The translations under genes were made by a program, and so were the position numbers. DNA of 64,000 nt from Hydrolagus affinis (Eukaryota): contig JAAILG010000195.1 of NCBI GenBank assembly GCA_012026655.1, positions 1-64,000 on the forward strand, given 5' to 3'. Positions 2,857-58,680 of the stretch are shown one piece after another (position 1 is the first letter of the stretch; each line of letters starts with the position of its first letter). The notes under the pieces are model-generated. The model had not been told where the DNA came from. It ran no database searches and was given only the letters and a program-made list of their open reading frames with translations.

Positions 2857-2906
2857 AATCCCTGCAAAGTCTGATCCCTATTTGTTAAAGCTGCTCACTA
2901 CTACTT

Positions 2907-2939
2907 GTGGAGTCCTGTAGCTCAGTGGTTAGAGCACTC
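2907..2939 (+). mobile_element. Isolated tRNA-like head of SINE family A
   Basis: GTGGAGTCCTGTAGCTCAGTGGTTAGAGCACTC matches the 5' end of the family A copies at 16342 and 20817; the body is absent. Confidence 0.7.
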
Positions 2940-2957
2940 AACAATAACAACAAAATT

Positions 2958-3265
2958 ACAATCATGTTTCCGTTTGTGTTCTCAAACTAATTTTCCCATT
3001 TTCATGTTCTCGCACTTGTGTTCTCAATCATATTCTCATTCATGTTTTCACACTTGTGTTCTCATTTGTGTTTGCACATTTTTGTTCTCACAATCACGTT
3101 TCCATTTGTGTTCTCAAACTGATTTTCCCACTTTCATGTTCTCGCACTTGTGTTCTCAGTCATATTCTCACACTAATATTCTCATTCATGTTCTCACACT
3201 CGTGTTCTCAGTTGTGTTTGCACATTTTTGTTCTTACAAATGTTATCACATACATGTTTCACCAC
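2958..3265. repeat. Two-copy higher-order tandem repeat (132 and 146 bp units) made of short GTGTTCTCA-like subunits
   Basis: Unit 1 (2958-3089) and unit 2 (3090-3235) are nearly identical; unit 2 has an extra 14-nt subunit. Confidence 0.85.
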
Positions 3266-4699
3266 CATGAATAATTTAATTGTTCCCATAAATTCAGGCA
3301 AACTTTTATTTTTTTTGTGTCGTGGTCGTTAACACTTGGTTGTCTGTCTCTGGGTAGATGTGCTTGGCAAAAACAGATAGGTTTGTAGCAATCCAAGGCA
3401 TTTATTGATAGTTGACTAAACTGTTTGGCTCATCAAAGGGACTTGGAGATGTAGACACATCCTCAGCTTTGCAAGTCAAAGCCCTATTGGATTGGACTGA
3501 CTGACTGGATATGGACAAATACTATGAAGTGTCGCAATGCTTTGTGCCGTAAGCAGTGCGATTATTATTATTATTATATTTGTCAAACATCACACTGAAC
3601 GTGACAGGTTTCCTATGCTCCCGTATGCCATGTTCTTTTAAAGCAGGTACAACCACTTCTGGACAAGGAACCATGGGAAGCTTTATCCTGTTTTTATTTA
3701 TTCATAAACTTGACATTCACCATCATGCAAAATTTAAATTGTTACCTTGTACCAGCCACATTACTTCACAAAGAGAGTCCTTGAAGTATCCAAAGCCCTG
3801 AGTGTGGACAAGACTCAAGAGCAGTCATTAAAATGTGCGTAACCACGGCTTCCAACTACAGTATATGTTCTTTGCTGAGTAAACAGGTGCATAGAGGAAG
3901 ATCAGAAAGCTCATGTACTCAGTGAAAAAAAATTATGTGACCCACCAGTCAGTTGTATAGTTGTTAGAAATAACATATACATTCATTTGTAATGTTAAAA
4001 ACCTATTCTTCTCTCACTCTCGTGACTTTAGTAAGATTAGTAAGAAAAATAACATATTATGCAAAGTAACTGCTACTCCTGATTGCAGTGCTTGCAGTGC
4101 TCTGACACATTATCCTTCATACTTGAAGGACACAATGTACATGAAAGCTGTTCTTGTTATATTTACTGTAAAAGTGAAAACTCCAAATCAGTCAGTAGTT
4201 AAAACATTTTTCATAATTTTTTTAAATAAAATTATATAGGAAAAAATTATGAGTCATTTGGACACATCTGTCTTCAACCAATGAGCATTATATTTTTCTC
4301 AGCTAAAATAGCTAAAGCAAGGAAATAACATCCACCTGATAATATTGGGACTGAATTTGTTTTTAACTACTTTCAGAATACATGTTCCAATAGGTTATTT
4401 TCTGGAAGCCAAAAAAATCAATGCAAAGTTTTCTATTTTTTCTGCTGCAAACATAACGGACCAAAATTCTTCTGTTAATAATGAACATGGGCATATGGGG
4501 AAGTGGAGTTTCTGAAGTAAGTCTGATAAATTGAAATAGGGAGCAACATTCCTCAATGTCTGTTGTGAGAAATGGGTTTTGCTTATGTTGAAAATCTACG
4601 CAGCCTATAAAGATACACCTTCAGTAAAATAAATGAGCATCTCTGGTAGTAGCAACAGTTGAGCTAATCTAACCATAAAGCATTGAGTGTTTAGAAGCA

Positions 4700-6501: not shown

Positions 6502-8075
6502 CTATGCCCCTATTTATAAAGCCTAGTGGTCCCAATACTCACCCCTGGGGACATAATTACACACTTCCCTCCAGTCAGAAAAACAACTGTTCACCACCAC
6601 TCTCCAATTTCTGTCTCCCAGCTAGTTCAATATCCATTGTCCCTTCAATACCATGGGCTTCTATTTTGCATATAAGTCCCTTATATGGCACTTTATCAAG
6701 CACCTTTTAAAAATCCACATAAACTGCATCAACTTCATGATCTTCATCCATCCTTTCCCTTACTTCATCAAAAAACTCCATCAAGTTTGTTAGACCAGAT
6801 TTGCCTTTAACAAATCTGTGTTGGCTATCCTTTATTAACCCATATTTTTCTAAGTGAAATATTATTTTATCCTAGATTATAGACTCTACAACATTATTTC
6901 CACCCTTACTTCGCTCAGTAAGCTAGCATGCATCCCATCTGGACCTGGTGACTTACCTACTTTGAGCACCAATAACATTTCAGTTTATTCTTATCTTATC
7001 CAATTTCTCTACCCACTTTTCCAATATTGTGGCATTAGCTGCATCCTCTTCTTTTGTGAAGACAAATGCAATGTTCTCATTCAATATGTCAGCCAGTCCA
7101 TCTGTCTCCACAAGAAGATTTCCTCTTTCGTCCCTAATTGGACCCACCCTACCCTTGACTAACCATTTAGCTGTGTTACCTGCCAATGCTTCTTTCCTGT
7201 CCACCTAGGCTAGGTTCCTTTTTAACTCACCGGTATTAGCCCTCTTCCAGTTGAGCATTTTCACTTTGATTATTCCTTGTCCCTTTCCACAAGCACTCCA
7301 AACCTAATGATGTTGTTCAGATGCGTTCCTCCTGAAACCCCCGTCATGTGCCTCACTTCCTTCCCCAGAACTAGATCCAGAACTGCTTCCATCCTCGTTG
7401 GATGATCCAGAAAGTTATCCTGCACATACGTCAGAAATCCTTTCCCTTCCTTGCCCTGTACACTATTATTTTGCCAATCTATGTTAGGATAATTGAAGTC
7501 CCCCATTAATACTATATTGGTTTTGCATCTTTCTGAAATTTGCTTGCAGATTTGCTCATCACCTCCTTCCCACTATTGTTGACCTATCTAACAGAATAAC
7601 AAGTTTTTTTCTGCTCTTTAATGCTAACTTATAGCATTAAATACAAATAATGCAGATTCTTTTTTGGACCCTCCAGCACATCTTCCCAATCCAGGGCAAT
7701 AACTGGGCCTTTAATTAATAATGCCACCACTCCTTTTTTTTCACTTTCCTATCCCTCTTGAATACATTGTAACCAGGAATATTCAGCTCCATTATTGCCA
7801 CTCATCATAACCCCATGTGGCAACTTCAGCCTGCAGCTCACCAATCTTATTTTTCACACTCTGTGCATTTACGCACATGCACTCCAAGACTGACTGAGTC
7901 TGCTCTCCATGTCTCCCCCGTCCAATCCTTCCTTGTCTGGATGACTCCTTACTACATTGCTATTTGTCTCTCCCAGCCCTCTATGTACAGCAATTCGTTT
8001 GTCCTCCCTGTTGACACATCCTGATTCTCTTCCCCCTCAAAATTAGTTTAAACCCTTCCTCACAGCTTTAGTTAA
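6502..8075 (-). mobile_element. CR1 LINE internal fragment (end of ORF1, endonuclease and part of RT), degraded
   Basis: Minus-strand translations: MGDFNYPNIDW..FL..VQDNFL..PTR.EAVLDLVL (APE domain, 7270-7506); VGPIRDERG...ADILNE..AFVFTKE (6980-7204); an RT VD..Y.DF.K..DKVP-like motif near 6680-6740. Multiple stops and deletions. Confidence 0.9.
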
Positions 8076-11157: not shown

Positions 11158-11700
11158 ACCTCCTCTCCGGTCTCCCCTCCACCACAATCCACAAAATCCA
11201 GCTAATACAAAACTCTGCTGCCCGCATACTCACCCGCTCTAAGCTTCGCTCCCCCATTAGCCCAGTCCTTGCCAGACTTCACTAGCTCCCTATCCCAGAG
11301 AGAATCGACTTCAAGATCCTCACCCTTGTTTTCAAATCCCTCCACTCCTCTGCACCCCCCTATCTCTCTGATCTCCTCTCCCCCCAAACCAGCACCCGCT
11401 GCCTTCGCTCCTCTGGGTCTGGCCTCCTCCATGTCCCCCGAATCCTCTGCTTCACCCTCGGCGGCCGTGTCTTCAGCCACTACGCCCCGAGGCTCTGGAA
11501 CTCCCTTCCTCACTCCCTTCACCTTGCCCCCTCTCTTCCCAGTTTCAGGTCACAGCTGAAGACCTTTCTCTTCGACCGTGCTTTTGGTCTCCTTTCTGCC
11601 CCTGCCCCTGGCTTGGTCCCGGGATCCGCTATTGTAAAGCACTCTGAGACGCCGTCCAGTGTGGAGGACGCTATATAAATCAAAGTTGTTGTTGTTGTTG
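11158..11700 (+). mobile_element. 5'-truncated, relatively young L2 LINE (ORF2 C-terminus plus (GTT)n tail)
   Basis: One frame reads LLSGLP..IHKIQLIQNSAARILT..ISPVLARLH*LPIPERIDFKIL..APPYLSDLL..GGRVFSHYAPRLWNSLP..LKTFLF with a single stop (TGG>TAG at 11283). Ends GCTATATAAATCAAAG(TTG)n. Confidence 0.95.
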
Positions 11701-14338: not shown

Positions 14339-14619
14339 CAGGTGTGAGACCTGTGTTCGAATTCAGGCAGGGCGAAACCTTGGGCAAGTTTCCTTACTCC
14401 ACATGCTTACTAATAATCCCTTTTTAAAAAAAATTCTAGTAAATTGGTCATTTCAATCCACGACTGTTTGTGGGATACTGCTGTCCGCAACTGGCTGTCA
14501 CATTTTGCCCACAAATGTACACTCAATACACTTTACAGTATATTCTGTGAAGCACTTTTAGACATCTAGAAGACGTGAAAAGTGCTACATCAAATGCAAG
14601 GATTATTATTATTATTATT
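14339..14619 (+). mobile_element. SINE family A, short variant, missing the first part of its head
   Basis: GAGACCTGTGTTCGAATTC B-box, CCTTGGGCAAGTTTCCTTACTCCAC, body, and ATCAAATGCAAGG(ATT)n tail. Confidence 0.9.
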
Positions 14620-16056: not shown

Positions 16057-16341
16057 ATTGGAAGTTAAATTTTTGCTCAAAATAGCAATAAAATGATTCC
16101 TACTGAACTAAAATGTCTTGAGGCAATAGCATATCATTACATGGAGCGAACAACATTAATGACATGTGGCCATTGTTACTGGATCAAGACAGACCACAGG
16201 CCACATACTTAACAATACATTTAACAATAGTAGGCATTTTAAATGGAATTAAGTTAGTAACTAGTTGAAAATGGTGTGTTTTTAATATATCACCTCAAAA
16301 TAATTATCATATTTTAAATTGGATACTCATACATTGTTATT

Positions 16342-16595
16342 GGAGCTGTAGCTCAGTGGTTAGAGCACTCGCTTTACAAGCGAGAGACCTGAGCTTGATT
16401 CCCCGCAGGGTGAAACCTTGGACAAGTTTCCTTACTCTACATGCCTGATAATAATCCCTTAAAAAAAAATGTGGTCATTTCAATCCACTACAGTTTGTAC
16501 AGTCAATTCACTTTACAGTATATTCTATGAAGCACTTTGAGATGTTTAAAAGATGTGAAAGTGCTATATCAAATGCAAGGATTATTACTATTATT
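16342..16595 (+). mobile_element. SINE family A, short variant with internal deletion and an intact tRNA-like head
   Basis: GTAGCTCAGTGGTTAGAGCA A-box, anticodon arm CTCGC-TTTACAA-GCGAG, degenerate B-box, and (ATT)n tail. Confidence 0.9.
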
Positions 16596-20512: not shown

Positions 20513-20817
20513 ATAATAATAATAATCCTTGCATTTGTTATAGTGCTTTTCACGTCTTCCAGATGTCTCAAAGTGCTTCACAGAATATCCTATAAAGTGA
20601 ATTGACTGTATATTTGTAGGCAATATGCGGCAGTCAATTGTGCACAATTGTGTCCCACAAACAGTCATGGACTGAAATGACCAATTTCTTTTTGAGGGAT
20701 TATTATCAGGTGTGTGGAGTAAGGAAACTTTCCCAAGGTTTACACCCTGCCAGGAATCGAACCCAGGTTTCTCGGTTGTAAGGTGAGTGCTCTAACCATT
20801 GAGCCAAAGGACTCCAC
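20513..20817 (-). mobile_element. Full-length SINE family A, short variant
   Basis: Complete head (GTGGAGTCC..GGTTAGAGCACTC..GGGTTCGATTCC), body and (ATT)n tail on the minus strand. Confidence 0.92.
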
Positions 20818-22410: not shown

Positions 22411-24410
22411 GAGAAATAAAGACTGACTTGTTAAAAATTAAGGAAATGCAATCTTACGATTTTTTAAATAATGCAGTGTTTTTACATAAGAAACATTAAG
22501 GTTTAAATATAAATTCTGATTGTTGTAATTTTCAAGCAGACATCTTACACACAACAAAGTCAGCCAGGAATACAATTTCACCTTGAGTTGAACATTGTTA
22601 CTATTTGTTCATTTCAAGTGTGTCCTCTGTGGAAAATGTCATAGACAATGAGTAAATGTCATGATCCAGAAACACAAAAGGTTAACAACGAGTTAAGCCC
22701 ACAGAAATAACTTTAGTGATCAATAAAGATTAAATGTTCTACCTTATGATGGCTCTGCAACTTTTGTTCTGTCATCTGTGTGCTGGAAAATTATCATAAA
22801 ATTTTTAAAGATGTCCTCAGTGCAGAATATGTCTATGAAATATTAAATATTCAATTTTCCTCTATCATGGCTGGAAACATTCATAATTATATGATGATTC
22901 ACATAATAACTCATTCTGAAAAGTCATAAATGGCACTCCCTCTGCGACAAAGTTAATAATTTACTGCCATTCAGGATTTTTCTCTATGCAGTGTTGGTCT
23001 TGTGAACATTTATTAAGCAAATGTTCAGTTGAAGAGGTCACAATCTGAACCACGCTTTCAAGAACAGTAGAGTAAGACTTTAATGAGGACTGACAGACAG
23101 GTGAGGTAAAGTTAGACATTTTTTAGTTTTGTCAATATTTTTTTTGTATACTGCTTGTGCAAAGAATGAGAAACTGTTAGAAAATTATCTGAAGAACATT
23201 AAATTGCAGTGGTTTCACTTTATTTATCATATGTTTCCACTGTATGAAATATATCAGGGAAATGGGTGCATTTAAAATGGCACCTAACAGGAATGAATTA
23301 AAATGAAATATTTGAAAAGAGAATTTTAGTGAAATCTTTCTCTTTTCTGCTGTTCATTGCTGTGGTTGCAATGATTTACTCCTAACAGTACTGTTTCCTG
23401 GTTGCTTTGAAAAGACTTGGAGGGTTTATGGCTCATGAGGTCTATGTATTTTAAAAAAAAACTTTCTTACTCTGGGATTGAACACTGCCAGGCAAAATAC
23501 CATGTGTGAAAAGTTAAGTCATTTACAGAATTCAAAGATTGTTTCAAAGTCAACTTTATTTTGATGTGGAAAATGAATAAAAACACTTTTTCCATGTTTT
23601 TCAAAGGGGAAAATAGTAAGAATATAAGCCATGTTTTATTGCCTCTGATTCAAACGCTTGAGGCGGTGAATTTAACAGAGTCCTTGGTCTGTGAGCAGAA
23701 TGATAAAGTCAGTGTGATACCGCCTTTTTCACAAGACAACATTTACCTGGGATGTGACCACATTTCACACATTAACATTCACACTTTCCTCTAGAATGGA
23801 ATTTCAGTTAAAAACACTAGAAATAAAATTAAAATAAGAACAGCCACCTCAGCATTCAAACACAGCCAATCTAAAACCACTAACTGACGCTTCCCAGTCA
23901 TGTGGTTCACAGTGTGTGCTTTTTGATGAATATGTCACAATTGTCAATACACTGTTAAGAATCATACGACCTGTTATAAACATCCGCATACCACTCCAGC
24001 ACACCTAGTTATAATGGCTCTCAAAGACTCTGTGGTCTACATTCATTTTTTAAAATGGCTAAATTCAAATATTAATTATTTTTCCCACCATCTTTGCATC
24101 ATAAAACAAATAGCAGACACATTTCATATTGCTAGGATTTTAAAGTCTCTTGTTTCTTTCAGCACAATAAAAACAGGCAGATTTATGTATATTCATTAAT
24201 TTCTTAAACACACTTTTATCTTTGCATTGGTTAATGTAATCCTAATGGCTTGGGAGTGTGCGGTAAAAGAGGCAGAAGCAGAACACCATTAAATCATCTC
24301 AAAATGTGTTCACTATTCAAACGATTTGAGGAATTAGAGAACATTAAAACTAATGACTGCTAATTATTATATCAAGTCTGAAATTACTCCTTGTTTTAGC
24401 TTGTGAGTCT

Positions 24411-24531
24411 ATTTTGTCTTAAAATTTTAAGATCATGCAGAATTTTGGAAAATTCTTAACTGTCTTCCAGATGAATGCTGAAGTTAAGAATTTTCCACAA
24501 TTTTGCATAATATTAAATTTTAAGACAAAAT
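24411..24531. repeat. Long imperfect palindrome (about 50-bp arms)
   Basis: ATTTTGTCTTAAAATTTTAAGATCATGCAGAATTTTGGAAAATTCTTAACT mirrors AGTTAAGAATTTTCCACAATTTTGCATAATATTAAATTTTAAGACAAAAT. Confidence 0.85.
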
Positions 24532-24577
24532 GGATAGAATTTTAGGTCTCTAGTTCGTAATTCTGCATCAACTAGCA

Positions 24578-25815: not shown

Positions 25816-25983
25816 AAAAGGTTATAACAGAGAGAGGTTAAATAAATATCATCTAACCAATAAAAATGCAATTTCTTGCATCCTGTCTAAAAATAAATAT
25901 GTCTTCAGTTTCCATTTCAACTTTACGTGACTGAGCCACACACCATTCTCTCGGTGAGGAAGCAGATGATTGACCTCATCTAG

Positions 25984-26136
25984 ACTTCTGGCAATCTTTT
26001 TCTTGAGCTGATCAAGAGACATATGAGAGGCAGCCGGACTATTCTCCCATCGGATTTCATCAAGAAGTCCATCAAGAAGCAACAGATTTCTTCTCAGTGG
26101 CTCTCTGATGGCACAGAGCTGAGATTCACCATAAAG
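25984..26136 (+). CDS. Candidate exon of an unidentified host gene (TSGNLFLELIKRHMRGSRTILPSDFIKKSIKKQQISSQWLSDGTELRFTIK)
   Basis: Non-repetitive, more GC-balanced than its flanks, 153 nt open in phase 0. Bounded by TTGACCTCATCTAG and a donor AAG/GTAATT; internal ATG at 26023. No protein recognised. Confidence 0.3.
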
Positions 26137-27004
26137 GTAATTACAATAATCATCCTTACATTTCATATTACACCTTTTATTTCAAGAGGCAACTTAAATC
26201 AGTAGCTAGTTAAAGCGCAGTAATGGCCCATAAAGAGATTTTATCTGGAGAACTGTTGGGCCGGACACCAAGAGAAACTCCCCTTTTTTAAAAAAAAATG
26301 CCAATTTGCAAGCAAACCTGTTTAGTGTTGTAGTGTCTTCGTCTCCAATGAACTCAACTATCAAGTAGTTTCCATTATTTAAAACTACTGATAATGAAAT
26401 ATCTGCGTTGTGTAAAGGAAGAGTAGCTGAAGTTATAGAATAGGCAGTTCGGGCAGTACTTCCCCTTGATAATACCAAGTAAACAATTTTTACAAATACT
26501 AGCAGCTTTTAAAAAAAATTATAGAGTGAAACAATCAACCATGATAAAAGAGATCAGACTGACTTAGTAAGTATTTCTGAATCATTGGCAGCATTTTATT
26601 CCTGGTATTAGCATCAATTCAAGTGCTGACACTGACAGTAATGGGGATTTGTAGCACTATGTCACAAAACTTGTATTTTATTCATTGGTGTAACACAGAA
26701 TTATAAACTGACTGAGAAATATCCAATTGAGTGCATCAAGCTGGTAGAGACGATGCTCATGATACTACTTATACATAGAGTGGCCATTCGCTTGCAGAGT
26801 TAAGGTCTATGTAGAAATATAGCATAGAAAGGACATCAAAAAGGTTGGAAGTTTCTCCCTCCATCTAACTCAGTGACATGCATCTTGCATTTCAAACTCT
26901 TCAAAGGTTGGCAGTCAATGTCAGAAAAGGCATCACAGTACCAGGATTGTGCTGCTTCATAGATGATCCAATCAAGAGGAACTGGACCAAAAGCAGCGTG
27001 GCCA

Positions 27005-27411
27005 ATATAACAGCAACTTGCATAGCACCCTGCACCCTGGGGAGAATCTCAGTGTTTAACTGTGGCGGAGCCTGACTCTAAGCTGGAGGTGTGTGTGGGG
27101 GTGGGAGAGTGGGGTGGGCAGGAGGTAGCTGTAAGCATGGTCGAAGAGGAAGGTTTTCAGTCAGCACATGAAAAATGGGAGAGATGGAGGGGGCAAGGTG
27201 GAAGGATTGAAGGAGAGTGTTCCAGAGTTTGGAGGCATAGTGACTGAAAGTGTGACCTCCGATGGTGGGGAGGAGGGTGTGAGGAATGAGCAGGAGGCCG
27301 ATGCCAGTCGAGCTGAGGCACCGGGTGGAGAATGAGCGGGTCGGAGAGGTAGGGATGTTCCAGGAATGAGTGAATTTGAACACGAGAGTGAGGATCTTGA
27401 AGTCAATATCT
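27005..27411 (-). mobile_element. L2 LINE 3' fragment
   Basis: Minus strand encodes IDFKIL..., LSSTGIGLLLIP..TIGGHTFSHYASKLWNTL, followed by the L2 3' end. Confidence 0.9.
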
Positions 27412-29639
27412 AGCTAACAAACAACAAGAGCTTTGATGTCCAATTAATAAAGGTATGCCTATTTTTGACCCTTCTCCAGAGGCAAAGGCTGCAACTTCGG
27501 CTAATGGGGTGGAATTGCAGCATACTGTGTGTGTGGACCATTAAGGAGCATTAAAACTGTGTAGTATGGCTCTGTGGCATTTATTTGCCATCAACAGGAA
27601 TAAAACTTAAATATAAAGTGAACCTTTACAGTTTGCCCCTCCCATTTTCTTACAATGCTGTGATACTTATTAAGTTTGAAATGTTACGAAATCCAAGTAT
27701 TCAAACTATGGTAATATCAACAACAGTCTTTCAGTCTTCGTCAATGAGAACGGAAACTGAGAGGCTGAAAATCCTATTGCCAACATTTAGTAGTAAAATG
27801 CTGTCACGACTGATCTCGATAATTTCATCCTACCTTCCTCATCATTATTTATCTTTGAACTGCACCAGTAATTTATTCACTTTTAAATCTAGCTTAAGTA
27901 AGATCAGAATTATTTGCCATTATTCTGTGTCCTGGATACAGTGACATTCTCCAATATTTTATCCTCATCTGGTCTGCATTTTTTTTTGTTCTGTGTGCAT
28001 GCAAAAAATCATTAAAGAAATATGTGGAAAATGTAAGGAAAAATTATCATGCTGAATATTTTAAAGGAGTAATAAAGTATACAACACATAAAACATGTCA
28101 TATTAACACTAACATTGTGGAAAAAATACATGATTTAAAAAAAATTAACCTTGGCATATTTTGCGATAATGCGTTAATAGAGTGCAATTTTAGCTAACAA
28201 AAGTGGATGTAAAGGATTATTACATTAACTGATTGTTGGATCTGCCTGTTTTTAAGCAAAATACCTGAAAATAGTAGAAACTTATTATTCTGAAGAAATT
28301 GTTGAAACTACTGTATCCTGATATATATTGGAATTTGAAAACCCATCAGACACACTTCAAGAGTTGTTACCGTCACTCAGATGGCCTGAATGGCACCATT
28401 AATCATTCACAAATCCCTCCAAAAAGATGGGAATGTCAGAGATGGAAGAGAATGTCAGAAAATATCAGGAATGATAGTTTAAAAAAAAGGACAAGGGTTA
28501 AAATATTAATGAAAGAATCTATGATGTTTAGCTATAATTGATTACAAAATCATTATGTTTTCACTTATCATATTGATGTAAATCATTTTCATATTTTAAT
28601 ATTCCCTGCTGATGTAAATCATGTCCCTATTGTTAAATACCTTCTACAAATTATGTTAAGTTCAGAAGTATGGTACATCAAATGGTGATACAATATTTAA
28701 CAGCAAGATGCATGTAAATAGCATGAAATATCTGGGGAATTTAAATAATGCCCTCTAAATTTTGTGAATGACATGATTCATACTTTGTGGAAATTACATT
28801 TTTCCTCGAGTAATGTCTCTCCTAACCGCAATCAAACTCTGCCACCCTTTAGCTCCTTCACATAATTTTGCTGTAAATCACCATGAAGGAGATTTTTTTT
28901 CCTAAAACATTCTGCCTGGAGAAGAGTAATTTATATAATCCCTCTCGGCAAGAAATTTTAGAATAAAAATTATGAAGAGTGTAATATTTCATTAGGTACA
29001 GTCAGGCCGACAACACTCCCAAATCCTAGTTACAATATTCAGTTAAATTAGTCTTTTTTTTCCAGAGCTAAAAGAAGGACAAGCATCAGAAGAGAGGCGC
29101 AAGCTAATAACCTTCATCTAAATTGTTTTCACCAAACAAATCAGCCCTCTGCTAATGAACATTCCCCACGGAATAGTCGTGTTCCTGGATCACTGAGCCG
29201 CAGATTGCTTCAGTAAATTCTGTAGTTTAATGTTCCCAGGATCATTAAGACATTCAAAATCAAACACACAGCAACTCACTGAATACAATAGCTGATGAAA
29301 TACAAATATAAAAATGATTGAAAGGCAAAAAGATTTGGAGTTTCTTGAAGGGGCTCCAAATTGTGAGAAATTCCTTCCTATCATTTTAGACAGTTGGTAT
29401 TTTGGAAAAGCTACCAAAAATATGTGGTTAGTGGAATTTAATTGTATATCGCTGAATTTTAAACACCTTTGTGCTTCTATTACCAGAAAGCAGCATTCAC
29501 GTTAAATTTAACCTGCAGGCAATGGCAAAAGTAGAGCTACGATCAGCTTTTAGATTTCCTCCTCTCTTTAATGCCAGCATTGGGAATCTATTGCTGAGAC
29601 TTGCTGAGAGGTGTAGGGGATGAACAGTTTCTGATATTA

Positions 29640-32810: not shown

Positions 32811-33387
32811 CATATTGGCTGCTTTTACAAATGCACAGTTACTATACTTAATAATAATTATTGGAAAGCACTGAAACATCAGATCTAACCTCGTCAAAGA
32901 TCAGGATAGTTCTACAGCTGTAACTAATTATCTAATTTACCTGGTATAGAGGATGCAGCATTATCAGTGGATGAAGGTGAATTACTGACACCTATATAAG
33001 TCAGAGATGATAGAAACCTGAAATTTACATGGAGTAACAAATAGGTGGACACAGATCTCAATGGCAAGGCTTGAACATGTTTCCCTTGGTCAGTTATAGA
33101 ACTCTGCTTCTGTGATTGGAGTGCTGGACTGCAATTGGTCAATATAGAGAGACATCTACCGATATAGTGAATGGAACTGAATGCTCAGTGAAACATGAAA
33201 TCAGTATCATGGATGTAGACATCAAAGAAATCAGAATAAAGCTAATTCTGCACACTCCCGGAACCAGTCAATAATTTAACACATCAATAGATCGTTTTTT
33301 ATTCCATGATGTGTTAATTAGCACTATGGTAATCTGAGTTGATCTATTAGCTCTAGTTGTCTCAATACATAGAATACAGAGATGAGA

Positions 33388-33632
33388 CAACAACAAAAGT
33401 TGCTGGGGAAACTCAGCAGATCAGGCAGCATCCATGGAGAAAAGAAAAAGAGTCAACGTTTCGGGTCTACAACCTTTCGTCAGAACTGGGGCAGTTCTGA
33501 CGAAGGGTTGTAGACCCGAAACGTTGACTCTTTTTCTTTTCTCCATGGATGCTGCCTGATCTGCTGAGTTTCCCCAGCAACTTTTGTTTTTGTTTCAGAT
33601 TCCCAGCATCTGTAATATTTTGTGTTTTGTTT
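33388..33632. mobile_element. Penelope-like retroelement remnant: inverted pair of terminal repeats flanked by a 14-bp TSD
   Basis: Arms 33392-33488 and 33492-33588 are reverse complements (96/97). TSD ATACAGAGATGAGA at 33374-33387 and 33633-33646. The sequence CTGACGAAGGG..CCCGAAACGTT..GATGCTGCCTGATCTGCTGAG is typical of chondrichthyan PLE-type termini. Confidence 0.85.
33493..33529 (+). ncRNA. Minimal type I hammerhead ribozyme motif (mirror copy on the minus strand at 33451-33487)
   Basis: AGTT-CTGACGA-A-GGGT(TGTAG)ACCC-GAAAC-GTT-GACT: conserved CUGANGA and GAAA cores, 4-bp helix II, helix I AGUU:GACU, and a vestigial palindromic helix III (ACGT). Confidence 0.7.
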
Positions 33633-35485
33633 ATACAGAGATGAGAGTTTGTTCAACTCTACCCACAGCGAGCTTGGTACTATAGAGGTGTTGGAATTTA
33701 AAGGTCTGCGGCAACTGCAGTGTGAAGAAGGACAAGGGAATAAAGTCAATCCAGGCAGGAGGGGGAGAGCAACAATTAGAACAATATAAGAATCACAATA
33801 CAATATAGAAGTATAACATACATAATGATGTTACATAGAAGTTTTGGATATGAACAGCAGCTAAACTGCAAGGTTGTATACTTTATTTTCCTTGCTTCCC
33901 AGTCAGCCTTATATTTAACAACAAACAAAACAAATAATCTATGACCCATAAACAAGAGACTCTTATGCCCAAAAGAATTATCCCTTTTTTGTCTACAGCT
34001 TATACATCTTTGAACCACTGTTTTCTGTAATGACCTTCAGGCATTCATTAGCATGCTGATTACCATTAACACAGCTATAACGCAGCAATTTTCTTGCTGT
34101 ATTTGGAGTGCTAGTGCTCATCTGAAGACAGCCAAGGGACAAAATTAACAGCATAAATCTACTGTTGAAACTGGCTTCCATCCAACACTTTGACAGACTG
34201 CTGGATTATCTAGAGTGTGACATGATCACCCAGCTCCCTGCTGATGGTTCATTGAGAGGCCTGTCTCCACACTATGGATTCTGCTACACAGGGGAACTAA
34301 TCTACCAAGAGACTGAACAGTTGATACTATGACACGTCTGCTTCAGATTGCCATCCCTTAACTCTCACGGGTCTTATCTTTTACAGAAATAAGAGCGAGT
34401 TTTTAATAATACTGGACACCTTTCCCGTCAACTCTGTATGACTTGCATAGACTGAAACCTATAGGAAATTATGTGCAAGGCAGTTTCAAAAAGATTTCAT
34501 TTGCCCATCTTACACCTGCTTTATTTCATTCTATTTTGCATATCACTTGCCACCAATAGACAATTATCAAGTACTATACAGAACTGGTGTGTTTTCTAGC
34601 CCCCCACCACCCCACCCACCTCATTCCATTGTAGCAAACAACACTGTTTATTTGAACTAAATTATTAAATCCACATTGAAAAGGAAAAAATATATACATA
34701 GGGCTAATTCTACTTATGATATAGTTAATGTATTTAAGTTTCTGTTAGGTTATAAACCTCATTTCCATTTATTCTGATGATTAATCTGGCTAATTCCAAT
34801 AAAGCAAAGGCTTGATTCAATATTTCTAATGTACTGCATCATAGATTGGTTCCAATAACACTGCTATATATAATGTTGATCCCCAACACATTTAGTTGGC
34901 TTAAATTGCTTAATTTTACATATCTATAGTACTACTTTTCACAACTCCATTTTATACACAAACTAAAGTGTAGATTGCAGTACATTACAAGGCTATCAAC
35001 CTATATTAAGGGATATAGAAAATGCCATAAACTCTTATTTAGAGAAACTGATTCAATTTAACACCATCTCAATGTCTTATACTGTATCTTAAAACACATT
35101 TCTATACATATATTAGTCTTTATCATTGAAAATGAAAGGCATTACTGTTCAGTACAGTGAAATTAGTTCCATTTCAAATGGGAAGCAGGCTCGGGCAATT
35201 TAATCACATGATTCAAGCCAAAGTGATGTTGTGAACCATGAATCATCTATAGTTTCAACGCTTTGTATCACAGTGATATTGAGTTTTGTTTCACACACTG
35301 GGTCTAAAGTATAATATTTGCAAATTGGATGTGTTGCATTAATTCAGGCTTCTGGCTTATGAATATCAGATTGTGGAATTAGTGATGAAATTCCAGAACT
35401 GAAAATTGTAAATCCCAAATTTCAACCAAGTTTAGAGAAAGCAAATCATTGTGTTTTGCTCACTGGATTTTACTCTGCATATAGT

Positions 35486-49399: not shown

Positions 49400-49632
49400 T
49401 TGGGCAAGTTTCTTTACTTCACACGCCCAATAATAATCCCTCCAAAAAAAAACACAATAATAAATTGGTCATTTCAATCCATGACTGTTTGCGGGACACT
49501 GCTGTGCGCAATTGGCTGTTGCATTTCGCCCACAAATATACAGTCAATTCAATTTGCATTATATTCTGTGAAGCGCTTTGAGATGTTGAGAAGATGTGAA
49601 AAGCGCTATATCAAATGCAAGGATTATTATTA
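49400..49632 (+). mobile_element. SINE family A, short variant, 5'-truncated
   Basis: TTGGGCAAGTTTC..ACACGCCCAATAATAATCCC..CTGTGCGCAATTGGCTG..AAGCGCTATATCAAATGCAAGGATTATT. Confidence 0.9.
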
Positions 49633-50135
49633 GTATATTACTATCATATATGGTTGTAGAATAATATTGAGGGGGAAAAAAAATATTTTCCAGCTGAACT
49701 TTTATTTAAACTGTACATTCAAGCAATTTGTTAAGTTATTATTTGTATCTGGATTGTTTAAAATGTCTACCGTGGTAAAACAGAATAAAACTGCTATGCT
49801 AAAAATGTTGATACTGTACTTAAATGTTTAACATGATTAAATATCTGTGTTATATAAAATCACTGTGACAATTTTATTGGGTGGGGAAAGGTTTGGAGGG
49901 TTACACAGTTGTGAAGATGGATTCAAGGCATCTTAGGCATCTATATTCTATGGTTCCAACATATGTAAAACGTATAAACATGTTACATTTCACTCAAAAC
50001 CTCAATATTTCTCACACACCTCTGTGGAGAAGAAAATCCACACAGTTCTAGATTTTGTCTATTTGTGTGGCGTTCATTTCAGAGTATCCAGCATTCGACA
50101 AATGTTTGAGTGAAATCTTTAATTTAATTTTAAGG

Positions 50136-51185: not shown

Positions 51186-51464
51186 TAATAAATAATAATA
51201 AAAATCCTTGCATTTGATGTAGTACTTTTCACATCTTCTAGACGTCTCAAAGCGCTTCACAGAATATACTGTAAAGTGAATTGACTATGCATTTGTGGGC
51301 GAAATACGGCAGCCAATTGTGCACAGCAGTGTCCCACAAACAATTGTGGATTGAATTTTTTTTTTTTGCGAGGGATTATTATTAGGCGTGTGGAGTAAGG
51401 AAACTTGCCCAAGGTTTCACCCTGCCTGGAATCAAACCCAGTCTCTCACGAGTGCTCTAACCAC
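51186..51464 (-). mobile_element. Near full-length SINE family A, short variant
   Basis: Close match to the 20513-20817 copy across tail, body and head. Confidence 0.92.
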
Positions 51465-51499
51465 AGATTTACAAGACTCCAATCCTAGTAGGACTAAGG

Positions 51500-51782
51500 A
51501 TTAAGTAGGGTGGGGTCCCATTAAAGTGGATGAGGGAGGAGAGGTGATGGAGAAGGACATCATGGTCGATTGTGTCGAACGCAGTAGAGTGGTCCAGGAG
51601 AACAAGGAGATAGACGGTGCCTTGGTGACAGAGAGAATGCTGTCTCTGTGTTGTGGGCAGGGCTGAATCCAGACTGGAGGGTTTCGAGTGTGGAGTGGAG
51701 GGAGAAATGTGAGAGAAGTTGATTTGCAACAATGAGTTGCAGAACTTTAGCAAGGAACAGTAAGTAAGAAATGGACTGGGAT
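51500..51782 (-). mobile_element. L2 reverse-transcriptase fragment
   Basis: Minus-strand LVLLDHSTAFDTIDHDVLL (L2 RT motif LLDLSAAFDTIDH); upstream QSGF.A.H.TE and RPIS-like segments in other frames. Confidence 0.85.
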
Positions 51783-53486
51783 TTTTCTAAAATTATTCCT
51801 TTCTCTCACCCCACTTAGCAACCCTAACAAATTAATATTGAAACTAGTTGAAAATATATCAAGTGGAAACAAATAGGTTTAATTTATAACAAGTGCATTC
51901 AGGTTAATTAACAGACAGAAGGTTTTGTGTTTAAACAAGGCTCCCTGATGCTATACATGCAGGTGTTGTTAAGGGCCAATTGAGCTCTATAGGATAATTA
52001 CCAAATGCCTTTGCGTTCTTCAATTTGTTAACAAAGTGCAGGCTGTAATTTGCCTAAACCCATAAACCATCATGTGTGATCCGGTGCAGCAATTAAGTGA
52101 AAACATCTTCTCATCAGAGATTCCTGAGAACAAAGATGTACAATAATATTTAAGAAGCCAGATGGATGTTCAGAATGCTGTTTTTTTTGACAGCTGTGAT
52201 GCTGGTTAATTGCGCACAAAGCACAACAAGAACATATAAATGGAGCTTCCCACCACCATATCTACTAAAATGCCTTGTTTTGATTTTCTGTTTTGGATTA
52301 GAATGTAATCTGAAAATCCTGACATATCTGAAATCAAGCATCAGGAAAGATGTTATTGTTATTAACTTGATCAGCGTGACACTACTACAGAGCTTATTTT
52401 ATATTAAGTAATATTTTTGTTCCTATGTTCCTTTCATTTTACTAATTTTTTTTAAAAAATGAGACGGTATAATTCATAATGTATAGTCTCTACTGGTAAA
52501 CAACTGCAAATGGCAAAGTAATAGCAAGAGCTGTGTATACAATTAGAAGCAGGTTTGAATTAAATGAACAGTCTTAAATACAAATGATTTTATTTGCGTT
52601 TTGTCTTTCTGTCAATGTATTTCTGGGCTAAGCCAAATTCTATTCCAGATCGAAAAGTTGGTGAAGCGGAATTGTTTCCCATTCCATTTAAAACATCATT
52701 CAAGCACACCAGTTCAAAATTATATTCCGACTCTGGAATTGCAGATTAGCAGTGTGTTTTTATTTGATAAGTGCTTGGTGCTATTCTACACCTTTAGGTA
52801 AGTTTAAATTTTTTTTCGCTGTGTCTTTACACAGAGTGTAATGCAATTTTAAATTTTAAATTACATACCATTACATTTTTTGAAATTGCATTACATTTAT
52901 TTATAAGTGCATAGGGACATATTTGCTGAACTTCCCGAACAGAGTTTGCCCAGAGGAGCAAATTCACTACATGGAATGCTCGGAGCTGAATAACCCCCTA
53001 CATGCTGTTCATTGAGTAGAATTTCACAACATTAAACACCACCCTGGACACTATTTAATTACTCTTTTTTTAATGAATAATTAAAAAGAAATCACTGCAT
53101 TCTCAAGACATCCAGAAAAATATTTCTGTGAGAATTCCAAGGAGAGGGTGTTTAAATCAAATGTCTATGTGCTTTTAATATATGGATGGATTTATTTGTT
53201 TACTATTGTTTATTGTGCCTTGTGTTAATTTTCTGTTGCTCAATGATGAATAGATCTACAGATTTAGATTTATTTAATCTGTAGTTCACAGCTTCCGAAA
53301 AAGCATTTAAAATCACAGTTGGTCATAGAGGATACGATTTATATCTCATGACATTATGCGTTTTGATGAGTGGCTTAAGTTGAATACAAGCTGACTTCCC
53401 ATCAAATATTCAATTTATACTACACTTTAGCTAAGTAATTCAAATGAGAATGATGAAAGTTAAATGTGAGAACTCTCACATTGCAC

Positions 53487-56542: not shown

Positions 56543-57957
56543 TCTAAGTATTTATGTCTATATTTTTTGTTTAAGTGCCATATTTTGTTCCCAAATGTCC
56601 AGCCTCAATAGTAGAGTAGAGGCTATTTCTTGGTTAACCAGAACTGACAAACAACTGCCTAACAAGGAAATGTGCTTCAGTCTACAAGTCTATGTAATCT
56701 TTATCACAACTGAAGATCACATTATTGGTAAGACTGCCTGCAATGGTAAGATTTCCTAATTTCTCATTGGAAATTAGGAAGACAATCAGTACAATAATAT
56801 AATAATAATCCTTTCATTTGATACAGCACTTTATCACATCTTTGAGACATCCCAAAGTGCTTCACAGGAATTACTGTAGACTGTGGTGACTACTTCCTGG
56901 GGATTTGCCCCTCAAAAAACATGAAGTGAACCTCTTAGATAACTAACAAAATAGAATATAGATATTGAAGTTGTATATAATAGGTGCCTAGAAAAGAGGT
57001 GCAACCTGTAAACCCACCAAATTGAATCATAATCTACGAAACTAAAGCTCAGCTGATTTAGGAAGGGTATATATGAATCTTACGATCGGGATAAGGCCTT
57101 TAACTCCTTTTTTCCACCATGAATGTGCACATTGTAATGCAGAATAATTAATATTTTGAGTAATTATCTGCTTTACAGCATAAAATTCTGACTTTAAATC
57201 TCATTGTACATACATTCTGCTTGAACTGCACCGATGTGCATGACCCTTCCTCCCTCTAGCTCTCGCTACTTGCTGTGCGATCCTGTCATTATAATGTATT
57301 CCAGATGTCAACTAAAATGAAATTGCTGTATACCTGCAAGTTGCTGTTTGGATGAAGAAGAAATATTAACCTGGACACCTTGGGGATAGGATGGGTTTCT
57401 TAACATTAACCTGAATCATAAGACAGACAGGGCCAAAATTTATCACTCCATCCTAAACACCTAAATAATCTGCTCATTTTTTAATGTTATATTTTGTTTG
57501 TTACGTTGTTCATTTAAACAAAATGAACAATTGCACTCTTAAGAAGGCTTGCCATGATTTTTAAAATAGGTTAGCTACTATTCCTGTGTGGGTGTTCCAT
57601 TCATACCTGTGTATATACATAGTCTGGAGTTCTAACATTGTACCATACTGGCATAGCTAACAGATCCCGCTAACAATCCATTCACATTGACACCCATGTT
57701 ACAGTACTTGGAAACTTGCTGTCCTCTGTGAAACTATATAACTTCACAAAGTACTTATAATTAACTATAATATACAGTAATACTAATCTTTGCATTTGAT
57801 ATAGCCCTTTTCACTACATTTAAAAAAAGTGTGCAATTACTTACATGATCAACAGCAACAGAACCAACTCACAGTACAGTACAATGAAAGAGAAGAGAAA
57901 TGTGTAGGTTAGCACCAGTGGAGAGAGAGCCAACTCAAGATTAACATGATGGTAAGA

Positions 57958-58063
57958 CTGAAACAAAAACAGAAATCGCTGGGAACACTCAGTAGGTCAG
58001 GCAGCATCTATGGAGAAAGGAAAAGTGAGTCAATGTTTCGGGTCCACGCCCCTTCGTCAGAAC
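57958..58063 (-). mobile_element. Single Penelope-like terminal repeat with a degenerate hammerhead motif
   Basis: Homologous to the 33388 arms. Minus strand reads GTTCTGACGAAGGGGCGTGGACCCGAAACATTGACTC. Flanking direct repeat ATGATGGTAAGA at 57946-57957 and 58108-58119. Confidence 0.8.
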
Positions 58064-58680
58064 AAGTTTTTGTATGATGGTACACATTTTTGTCTGATTA
58101 TTCTCATATGATGGTAAGATTGCCTGTGCTGAAATGACACAAATTTCTTAATAATAGAATTACCATTAAAAAATGGAGCAGGTAACTCAGGCAATCAAAT
58201 CAACTCCTTCCACAATCCATATATGTACCCACTCAATCACTAAATCTACCCCGCCATTTAATCTTCTGAATGAAAATTTAATGATTTCCAAAGTTTATGC
58301 AAAACACCAGATTATTCATCCATTCTCCCATCTTCACATTTGACCAGTCCTGTTATGTCCCAGCAGACTGGGAATGATTGTATCATGTTGAGCATTTAAT
58401 CATATTAGTCTGCACCTATCCCAATAATCCTTTTCCTAGCAGATATTTAAGTCTCAATTGTATGATCTGTGATCTGTAACCACATGCTTTCTGTTTGAAT
58501 CAGACAAGTTTGTCAGATGAGTTCCACTGCTAACGGTGTAAACACTTGCCTCCTGAAAGAGGAGAACAGCTGTTAGGTGAAAGCATAGTTATACCAATGC
58601 TTTACAGAGTGGTTAGAAAACTGAGAACTAGAGCAAGGACAGCACAACTATCTAGCAATTCATGATTAGAAGCATATATA

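Follow-up and report, generated by a model that had tools for sequence, protein, structure and literature searches.

According to Craig et al. (2021; PMC8557442), an inverted 5′-truncated copy accompanied by a one-sided tail of 30–40 bp is typical of insertions of Penelope-like elements (PLEs), and Arkhipova et al. (2013; PMC3846280) describe head-to-head inversions with palindromic junctions, a 31-bp tail, and target-site duplications (TSDs) of 8–10 bp, which they read as self-priming; in some of their PLEs the first codons of the ORF sit in the pseudo-LTR (pLTR) and tail. The inverted terminal repeats of Drosophila Penelope are reported to vary in size (Schostak et al. 2008; PMC2377424). For how PLEs prime and how their inverted arm forms, self-priming has been discussed (PMC3846280), and later steps are left unvalidated by Frangieh et al. 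(2024; PMC11167929), who report that a PLE protein acts on both strands, nicking and extending each, that two adjacent internal RT start sites bound the tail, and that uncleaved RNA is the main substrate. The minimal hammerheads of metazoan PLEs are described by Cervera and de la Pena (2014; PMC4209133) as occurring in opposite-strand pairs ~100–700 bp apart, most motifs being probable truncated PLEs; low in vitro activity is reported for them. In the pLTR, such motifs are weakly active, as dimers or with protein help. Non-LTR retrozymes have been reported in the one chondrichthyan sampled by Li et al. (bioRxiv 10.64898/2026.07.22.740005). The reviews PMC6765202 and PMC6155905 agree with this general picture. 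Our literature search, which covered few subscription journals, found no paper on hammerhead-centred PLE palindromes of chondrichthyans.

Here we analyse a window of 64,000 nt (64 kb) of Hydrolagus affinis DNA (contig JAAILG010000195.1, positions 1–64,000). We consider it probable that the unit at 33374–33646 is a dead, heavily 5′-truncated insertion of an endonuclease-bearing PLE, given that a minimal hammerhead combined with a head-to-head inversion, a tail, and a TSD is the published signature of truncated PLE insertions.

Architecture of the insertion at 33374–33646

The unit is composed of the following features.

33374–33387, plus strand: left TSD, 14 bp
33388–33488, minus strand: 101 nt of the element's 3′ end in inverted orientation, shorter than the right arm, lacking the tail and reaching to element position 33592 (the inner end point)
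33489–33491, no strand: junction of 3 nt, GGG on the plus strand, at which two 5′ ends join, one base outside helix I
33492–33592, plus strand: direct copy of the element's 3′ end, the pLTR-like part mirrored in the left arm
33593–33632, plus strand: one-sided extension of 40 nt, read as a PLE tail
33633–33646, plus strand: right TSD, 14 bp

A first-pass annotation had described arms that are 96/97 complementary around a 3-nt loop and a unit of 245 bp within a perfect 14-bp TSD, and our recomputation returned each of these values. The arms at 33392–33488 and 33492–33588 are complementary at 96 of 97 positions (99 of 101 if extended to the left TSD), and the 14-mer at 33374–33387 is identical to that at 33633–33646 and encloses 245 bp; when pieces of 32 and 45 nt were drawn at random from the window, up to 20,000 times, they shared a repeat of this length at a rate of 0.0001. 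The unit consists of copies of one sequence joined 5′-to-5′, one of 141 nt with the tail and one of 101 nt without it, the right arm being longer by the 40 nt at 33593–33632 than the part mirrored on the left. These features support the annotation's proposals that the unit inserted as one TSD-flanked piece and, together with the hammerhead described below, that its origin is Penelope-like; membership in the PLEs rests on structure, not on a linked ORF. Two other regions of the window yielded 17 and 12 inverted pairs, none of them comparable; the longest measures 43 nt (77%).

The sole mismatch between the 97-nt arms lies at position 33475. Since one mismatch in 97 corresponds to a divergence with a 95% interval of 0.03–5.6%, the insertion appears to be either young or homogenised. 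The inner five nucleotides of the left TSD, read outward, match the element's continuation at four of five positions, which may indicate a microhomology join. A protein search with the sense frame of the unit gave one match, P0001, an unnamed 71-aa translation of a relative (E 5.4e-4) that is not an RT; it matches that frame at 12 of 21 residues within the mirrored part and at 9 of 14 residues within the 40-nt extension, and because the relative keeps these 9 residues, the extension is probably element sequence. The antisense frame of the unit has no protein homologue in this search. An ATG-started frame of 28 codons is open through the tail (33549–33632, plus strand), and a polypyrimidine-AG stretch ending at 33598 (plus strand) resembles a splice acceptor.

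Hammerhead motifs and predicted folding of the unit

Each arm carries a hammerhead motif, and the two differ in condition.

33493–33529, plus strand: intact minimal type I hammerhead motif of the right arm, matching the descriptor
33493–33496 and 33526–33529, plus strand: helix I, 4 bp
33497–33503, plus strand: hammerhead core
33504, plus strand: extra A after A9
33505–33508 and 33514–33517, plus strand: helix II, 4–5 bp, first pair G10.1-C11.1
33518–33521, plus strand: GAAA
33520–33525, plus strand: palindrome AACGTT in the place of helix III, a zero-loop ACGU
After 33525, plus strand: predicted cut at a GUU triplet, from hammerhead numbering
33451–33487, minus strand: damaged minimal hammerhead with intact core, A in the place of G10.1 (33475), and helix II without its first pair

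The cut after 33525 that the annotation predicted follows from this numbering. A GUU triplet is cleaved less well than GUC.

Our descriptor was modelled on PMC4209133 and combines a CUGANGA and GAAA core with an extra base after A9, the pair G10.1-C11.1, a short helix I, and a palindromic 15.2-16.2. It matches the 64-kb window twice, at 33497 (plus strand) and 58060 (minus strand). With both thresholds set to 4 bp, a stricter setting that the plus-strand motif passes, 60 random sequences of 64 kb with matched dinucleotide composition gave no match. This motif thus has the features given in PMC4209133 for minimal hammerheads, including the 4-bp helix I, the base between 9 and 10.1, G10.1-C11.1, and the palindromic 15.2-16.2. 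The annotation had quoted one motif for both arms and placed a minimal hammerhead on both strands; the plus-strand half of that claim stands, and the minus-strand half does not, the left arm reading AGGT instead of GGGT on the minus strand and giving no descriptor match. The A opposite C at 33475 costs the minus-strand hammerhead its G10.1-C11.1 pair, so only the plus-strand motif is intact because the single arm mismatch falls on G10.1 of the other. G10.1 is described as quasi-conserved in hammerheads (PMC1636495).

A covariance-model check proposed by the annotation brought no confirmation. At gathering level Rfam has no hammerhead family in the whole window (two matches, both tRNA), and at E up to 10 the region 33300–33720 gives 11 matches, none of them a hammerhead and all under gathering. 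We posit that this negative result reflects the limit of the curated models on motifs without helix III. The miRNA, FasX, and CRISPR matches of Rfam were rejected as hairpin look-alikes below gathering. One Rfam consensus, that of MIR6136, resembles the hairpin at 33452–33528 in sequence and shape (57.8 bits, gathering 99); the MIR6136 family might derive from an inverted repeat that carried a hammerhead, or the two may be alike by chance. Across three copies, the only number available for this comparison, helices I and II show zero two-sided (compensatory) changes.

The annotation had further suggested that a transcript could fold as a hammerhead or as a double-stranded hairpin, and the folding model does not support such a switch. 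The whole unit folds at −193.7 kcal/mol (z = −26, 200 shuffles), and single-arm folds are not more stable than shuffles (z of 0.69, 0.77, 0.71, and −0.77). Forcing helices I and II in the whole unit carries a penalty of 61.2 kcal/mol on the plus strand and 64.8 kcal/mol on the minus strand, and the hammerhead pair probabilities are 0.0000 on both strands; for single arms they are 0.23–0.49 in the right arm and at most 0.03 in the left. The 5′-to-5′ joining of the arms means that, whichever strand is read, transcription would pass through the antisense arm ahead of the ribozyme arm. Given this order and a hairpin that in the model beats the hammerhead fold by 61–65 kcal/mol, it is unlikely that the unit acts as a ribozyme; read-through RNA of either strand would instead form a 97-bp hairpin masking the hammerhead. 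In dimer models of the 39-nt motifs, the double hammerhead reaches −10.7 against −25.9 kcal/mol for the best misfolded dimer (right arm), −3.3 against −16.7 kcal/mol (left arm), and +0.8 against −15.1 kcal/mol (the second copy described below). These modelled energies fit the low in vitro activity of such motifs, yet prove nothing.

A second copy and the origin of the insertion

The second descriptor match belongs to another copy in the window, which aligns at 57937–58063 (minus strand) with 83% identity over 128 nt.

57946–58082, minus strand: second, decayed copy, including the candidate TSD and a stub
58082–58074 and 57954–57946, minus strand: candidate 9-bp TSD, chance rate 0.006
58073–58066, minus strand: inverted stub of 8 nt, reverse complement of element positions 33586–33593

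The direct part of this copy begins 3 nt before the core (C3 at 58060), 2 nt off the junction of the first unit, and its motif has lost the ACGU palindrome and has one broken helix II pair. The stub starts at element position 33593, one base off the end of the first unit's left arm (33592); 63 of 62,592 window 8-mers match equally well. The 21 nt past the conserved end show a likeness to the tail that 5 of 4,990 random pieces equal; they may be either a decayed tail, in which case the right repeat is doubtful, or a template-like target. The stub, tail-like, and microhomology observations were made post hoc and on two copies. The copy, the only other one in the window (1/1), has no long inversion and no shared loop junction.

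We submitted to Pfam the 125 stop-to-stop frames of at least 68 aa in the window, with frames containing N and three frames of the right flank left out. Five of the 125 matched, one of them above the cut-off and none PLE-specific, and GIY-YIG matched none; two matches related to RT, at distances of 18 and 26 kb from the unit, look like LINE pieces. Pattern scans of viral, metagenome, and genome contigs returned no relatives with flanks. Viral contigs gave 0 and 0 loci; the 13 metagenome loci were rejected as chance, all 13 matching only a 21–23-nt pattern in GC-rich DNA, and the single genome-contig locus was rejected as a 22-nt match only. A search of viral contigs with P0001 gave 38 candidates and 0 confirmed. 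In a search of sequencing runs, 17 of the 21 listed rows contain the stretch or part of it, six of them with at least half the words, from eight studies; among the runs listed, none that contains the stretch is an RNA run.

The remainder of the window is rich in other repeats. LINE fragments lie at 7273–7572 (minus strand), 11286–11675 (plus strand), 27081–27413 (minus strand), and 51472–51786 (minus strand). The fragment at 7273 has an AP-endonuclease match that passes the Pfam cut-off, and the one at 51472 matches RVT_1 weakly; the segments 11304–11583 and 27133–27407 are 69% alike. tRNA-derived SINEs, ~70–85% alike, are abundant (14342–14616, 16341–16594, 20513–20816, 49400–49642, 51186–51481, and many more), two of their heads (16346–16408 and 20742–20813) pass the Rfam tRNA threshold, and we take this SINE to be SacSINE1/DeuSINE-like. 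Other features are nested AT-rich, MITE-like inverted repeats at 24408–24534 (40 nt at 88%, 20 nt at 95%), an imperfect tandem repeat with a unit of ~130–150 bp at 2875–3274 (85% alike, with long open frames), and an exon-like open frame of 110 aa at 25849–26181 (minus strand), which at 25852–26181 has no match in PDB, in Pfam, or among longer proteins.

Several observations weigh against the preferred reading of a truncated PLE insertion. No RT or GIY-YIG ORF is linked to the unit among the 125 window frames, Rfam calls no hammerhead, and compensatory change is absent among the three copies. The 14-bp TSD exceeds the 8–10 bp of the rotifer PLEs described in PMC3846280, and helix II, at 4–5 bp, is shorter than the 6–8 bp given for schistosome and Drosophila motifs in PMC4209133. 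In addition, both window copies start at the 5′ edge of the hammerhead, as random truncation would seldom have them do. This last point bears on what we regard as the most interesting rival reading, though a distinctly improbable one. In it the template, or the part of it that is copied, would always begin immediately ahead of helix I, at the edge of the hammerhead, either because the element is a short non-autonomous PLE derivative or because the RT meets a strong stop there, and each insertion would still build its inverted arm anew, to a variable length. Both copies (2/2) start no more than 2 nt apart at the 5′ edge of helix I, though only 83% alike, and their inverted parts measure 101 nt and 8 nt, yet have the same inner start point; against this, there are two copies in all, and the 5′ boundary of the second is set by a 9-bp repeat of a kind that arises by chance at a rate of 0.006. 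Were the end fixed by the hammerhead's own cut, the start would fall 34 nt further downstream. With two copies, the shared start hints at a possible stop or fold-back hotspot near the hammerhead's 5′ edge.

The annotation's larger proposal, a mini-retroelement that comprises all 245 bp of the palindrome, is transcribed and copied in one piece, and alternates between hammerhead and dsRNA hairpin, would account for a single TSD-flanked piece with near-perfect arms in exact symmetry about a 3-nt loop. We consider it very improbable. A fixed palindromic family is disfavoured because the other window copy (1/1) has neither the loop nor the long arm, only an 8-nt stub; moreover, the hammerhead is unpopulated in the unit on either strand of the folding model, the minus-strand motif is damaged, and PMC8557442 and PMC3846280 describe the same layout as a usual by-product of PLE integration. 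Even less credible is a MITE, a miRNA-like hairpin gene, or a fold-back assembly artefact, to which the long, nearly perfect hairpin (z = −26) and the sub-threshold Rfam matches to miRNA precursors could point. A MITE was rejected given that the terminal inverted repeats do not reach both TSDs, a 40-nt unpaired tail preceding the right one. A single-arm relative exists, and the Rfam scores all lie far below gathering. For a read fold-back artefact, a 14-bp TSD, an internal mismatch, and a tail would presumably be unexpected. A non-LTR retrozyme was likewise rejected, the unit having neither head-to-tail tandem units nor two same-strand hammerheads.

Returning to the truncated PLE insertion, we offer a reconstruction of the steps by which it may have arisen. 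An element-encoded RT/GIY-YIG protein would have cut the two target strands at points staggered by 14 bp, and copying of the 3′ pseudo-LTR end of the RNA would have been primed at an outer start site. The template was presumably uncleaved at its hammerhead, because the 34 nt preceding the predicted cut are present in both arms, and copying would have halted just past the hammerhead and helix I. The mirror half would have arisen in the course of this insertion. The simplest route, favoured because both arms end at the same base, is fold-back onto the freshly copied cDNA; alternatively, both nicks may have served for priming, with start sites separated by 40 nt. Joining would then have occurred at the inner end point, perhaps via microhomology. 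The hammerhead in this scheme would be cargo from the parent's pLTR. A more ambitious version, in which the hammerhead fold itself sets both the RT stop and the fold-back, so that a halt on uncleaved RNA at the 5′ edge of helix I yields a stereotyped hammerhead-centred palindrome, strikes us as unlikely; if true, the motif would serve, without catalysis, as a signal for RT stopping or template switching, and this could be read from the junctions of thousands of genomic stumps.

Relation to described elements

The arrangement of this insertion is already described and ordinary; the unit is most likely a clean textbook PLE stump, and a single insertion of this kind matters little. In bulk, the end points and junctions of PLE stumps record priming and inverted-arm formation, and should junctions cluster at the 5′ edge of the hammerhead, this would suggest that a ribozyme with weak in vitro activity, which insertion does not require, plays a structural part.

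With endonuclease-bearing (EN+) PLE insertions, as characterized in the published descriptions, the unit shares the head-to-head inverted 5′-truncated copy, the palindromic junction, the one-sided tail of 30–40 bp, and a TSD; it differs in retaining no ORF and in a TSD of 14 bp rather than 8–10 bp. The likeness to the minimal hammerheads reported from metazoan PLEs extends to the short helix I, the extra base between 9 and 10.1, G10.1-C11.1, and the loop-less palindromic 15.2-16.2, and also to neighbouring opposite-strand pairs and to the mostly solitary, truncated state of the motifs. In contrast to the spacing of ~100–700 bp given for those pairs, the cores here lie 14 nt apart, helix II has 4–5 bp, and the minus-strand copy lacks G10.1. 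The PAc Poseidon element of Anolis, as reported, also has a tail derived from two RT start sites and copies that retain an uncleaved hammerhead; its RT starts in an AC-rich stem-loop inside the ORF, whereas the end points of our unit lie in U-rich tracts. Non-LTR retrozymes, as their authors present them, resemble the unit in being non-coding, related to PLE pLTRs, and equipped with a type I hammerhead, but they are arranged head-to-tail with at least two same-strand hammerheads, whereas this unit is head-to-head with one hammerhead motif per strand.
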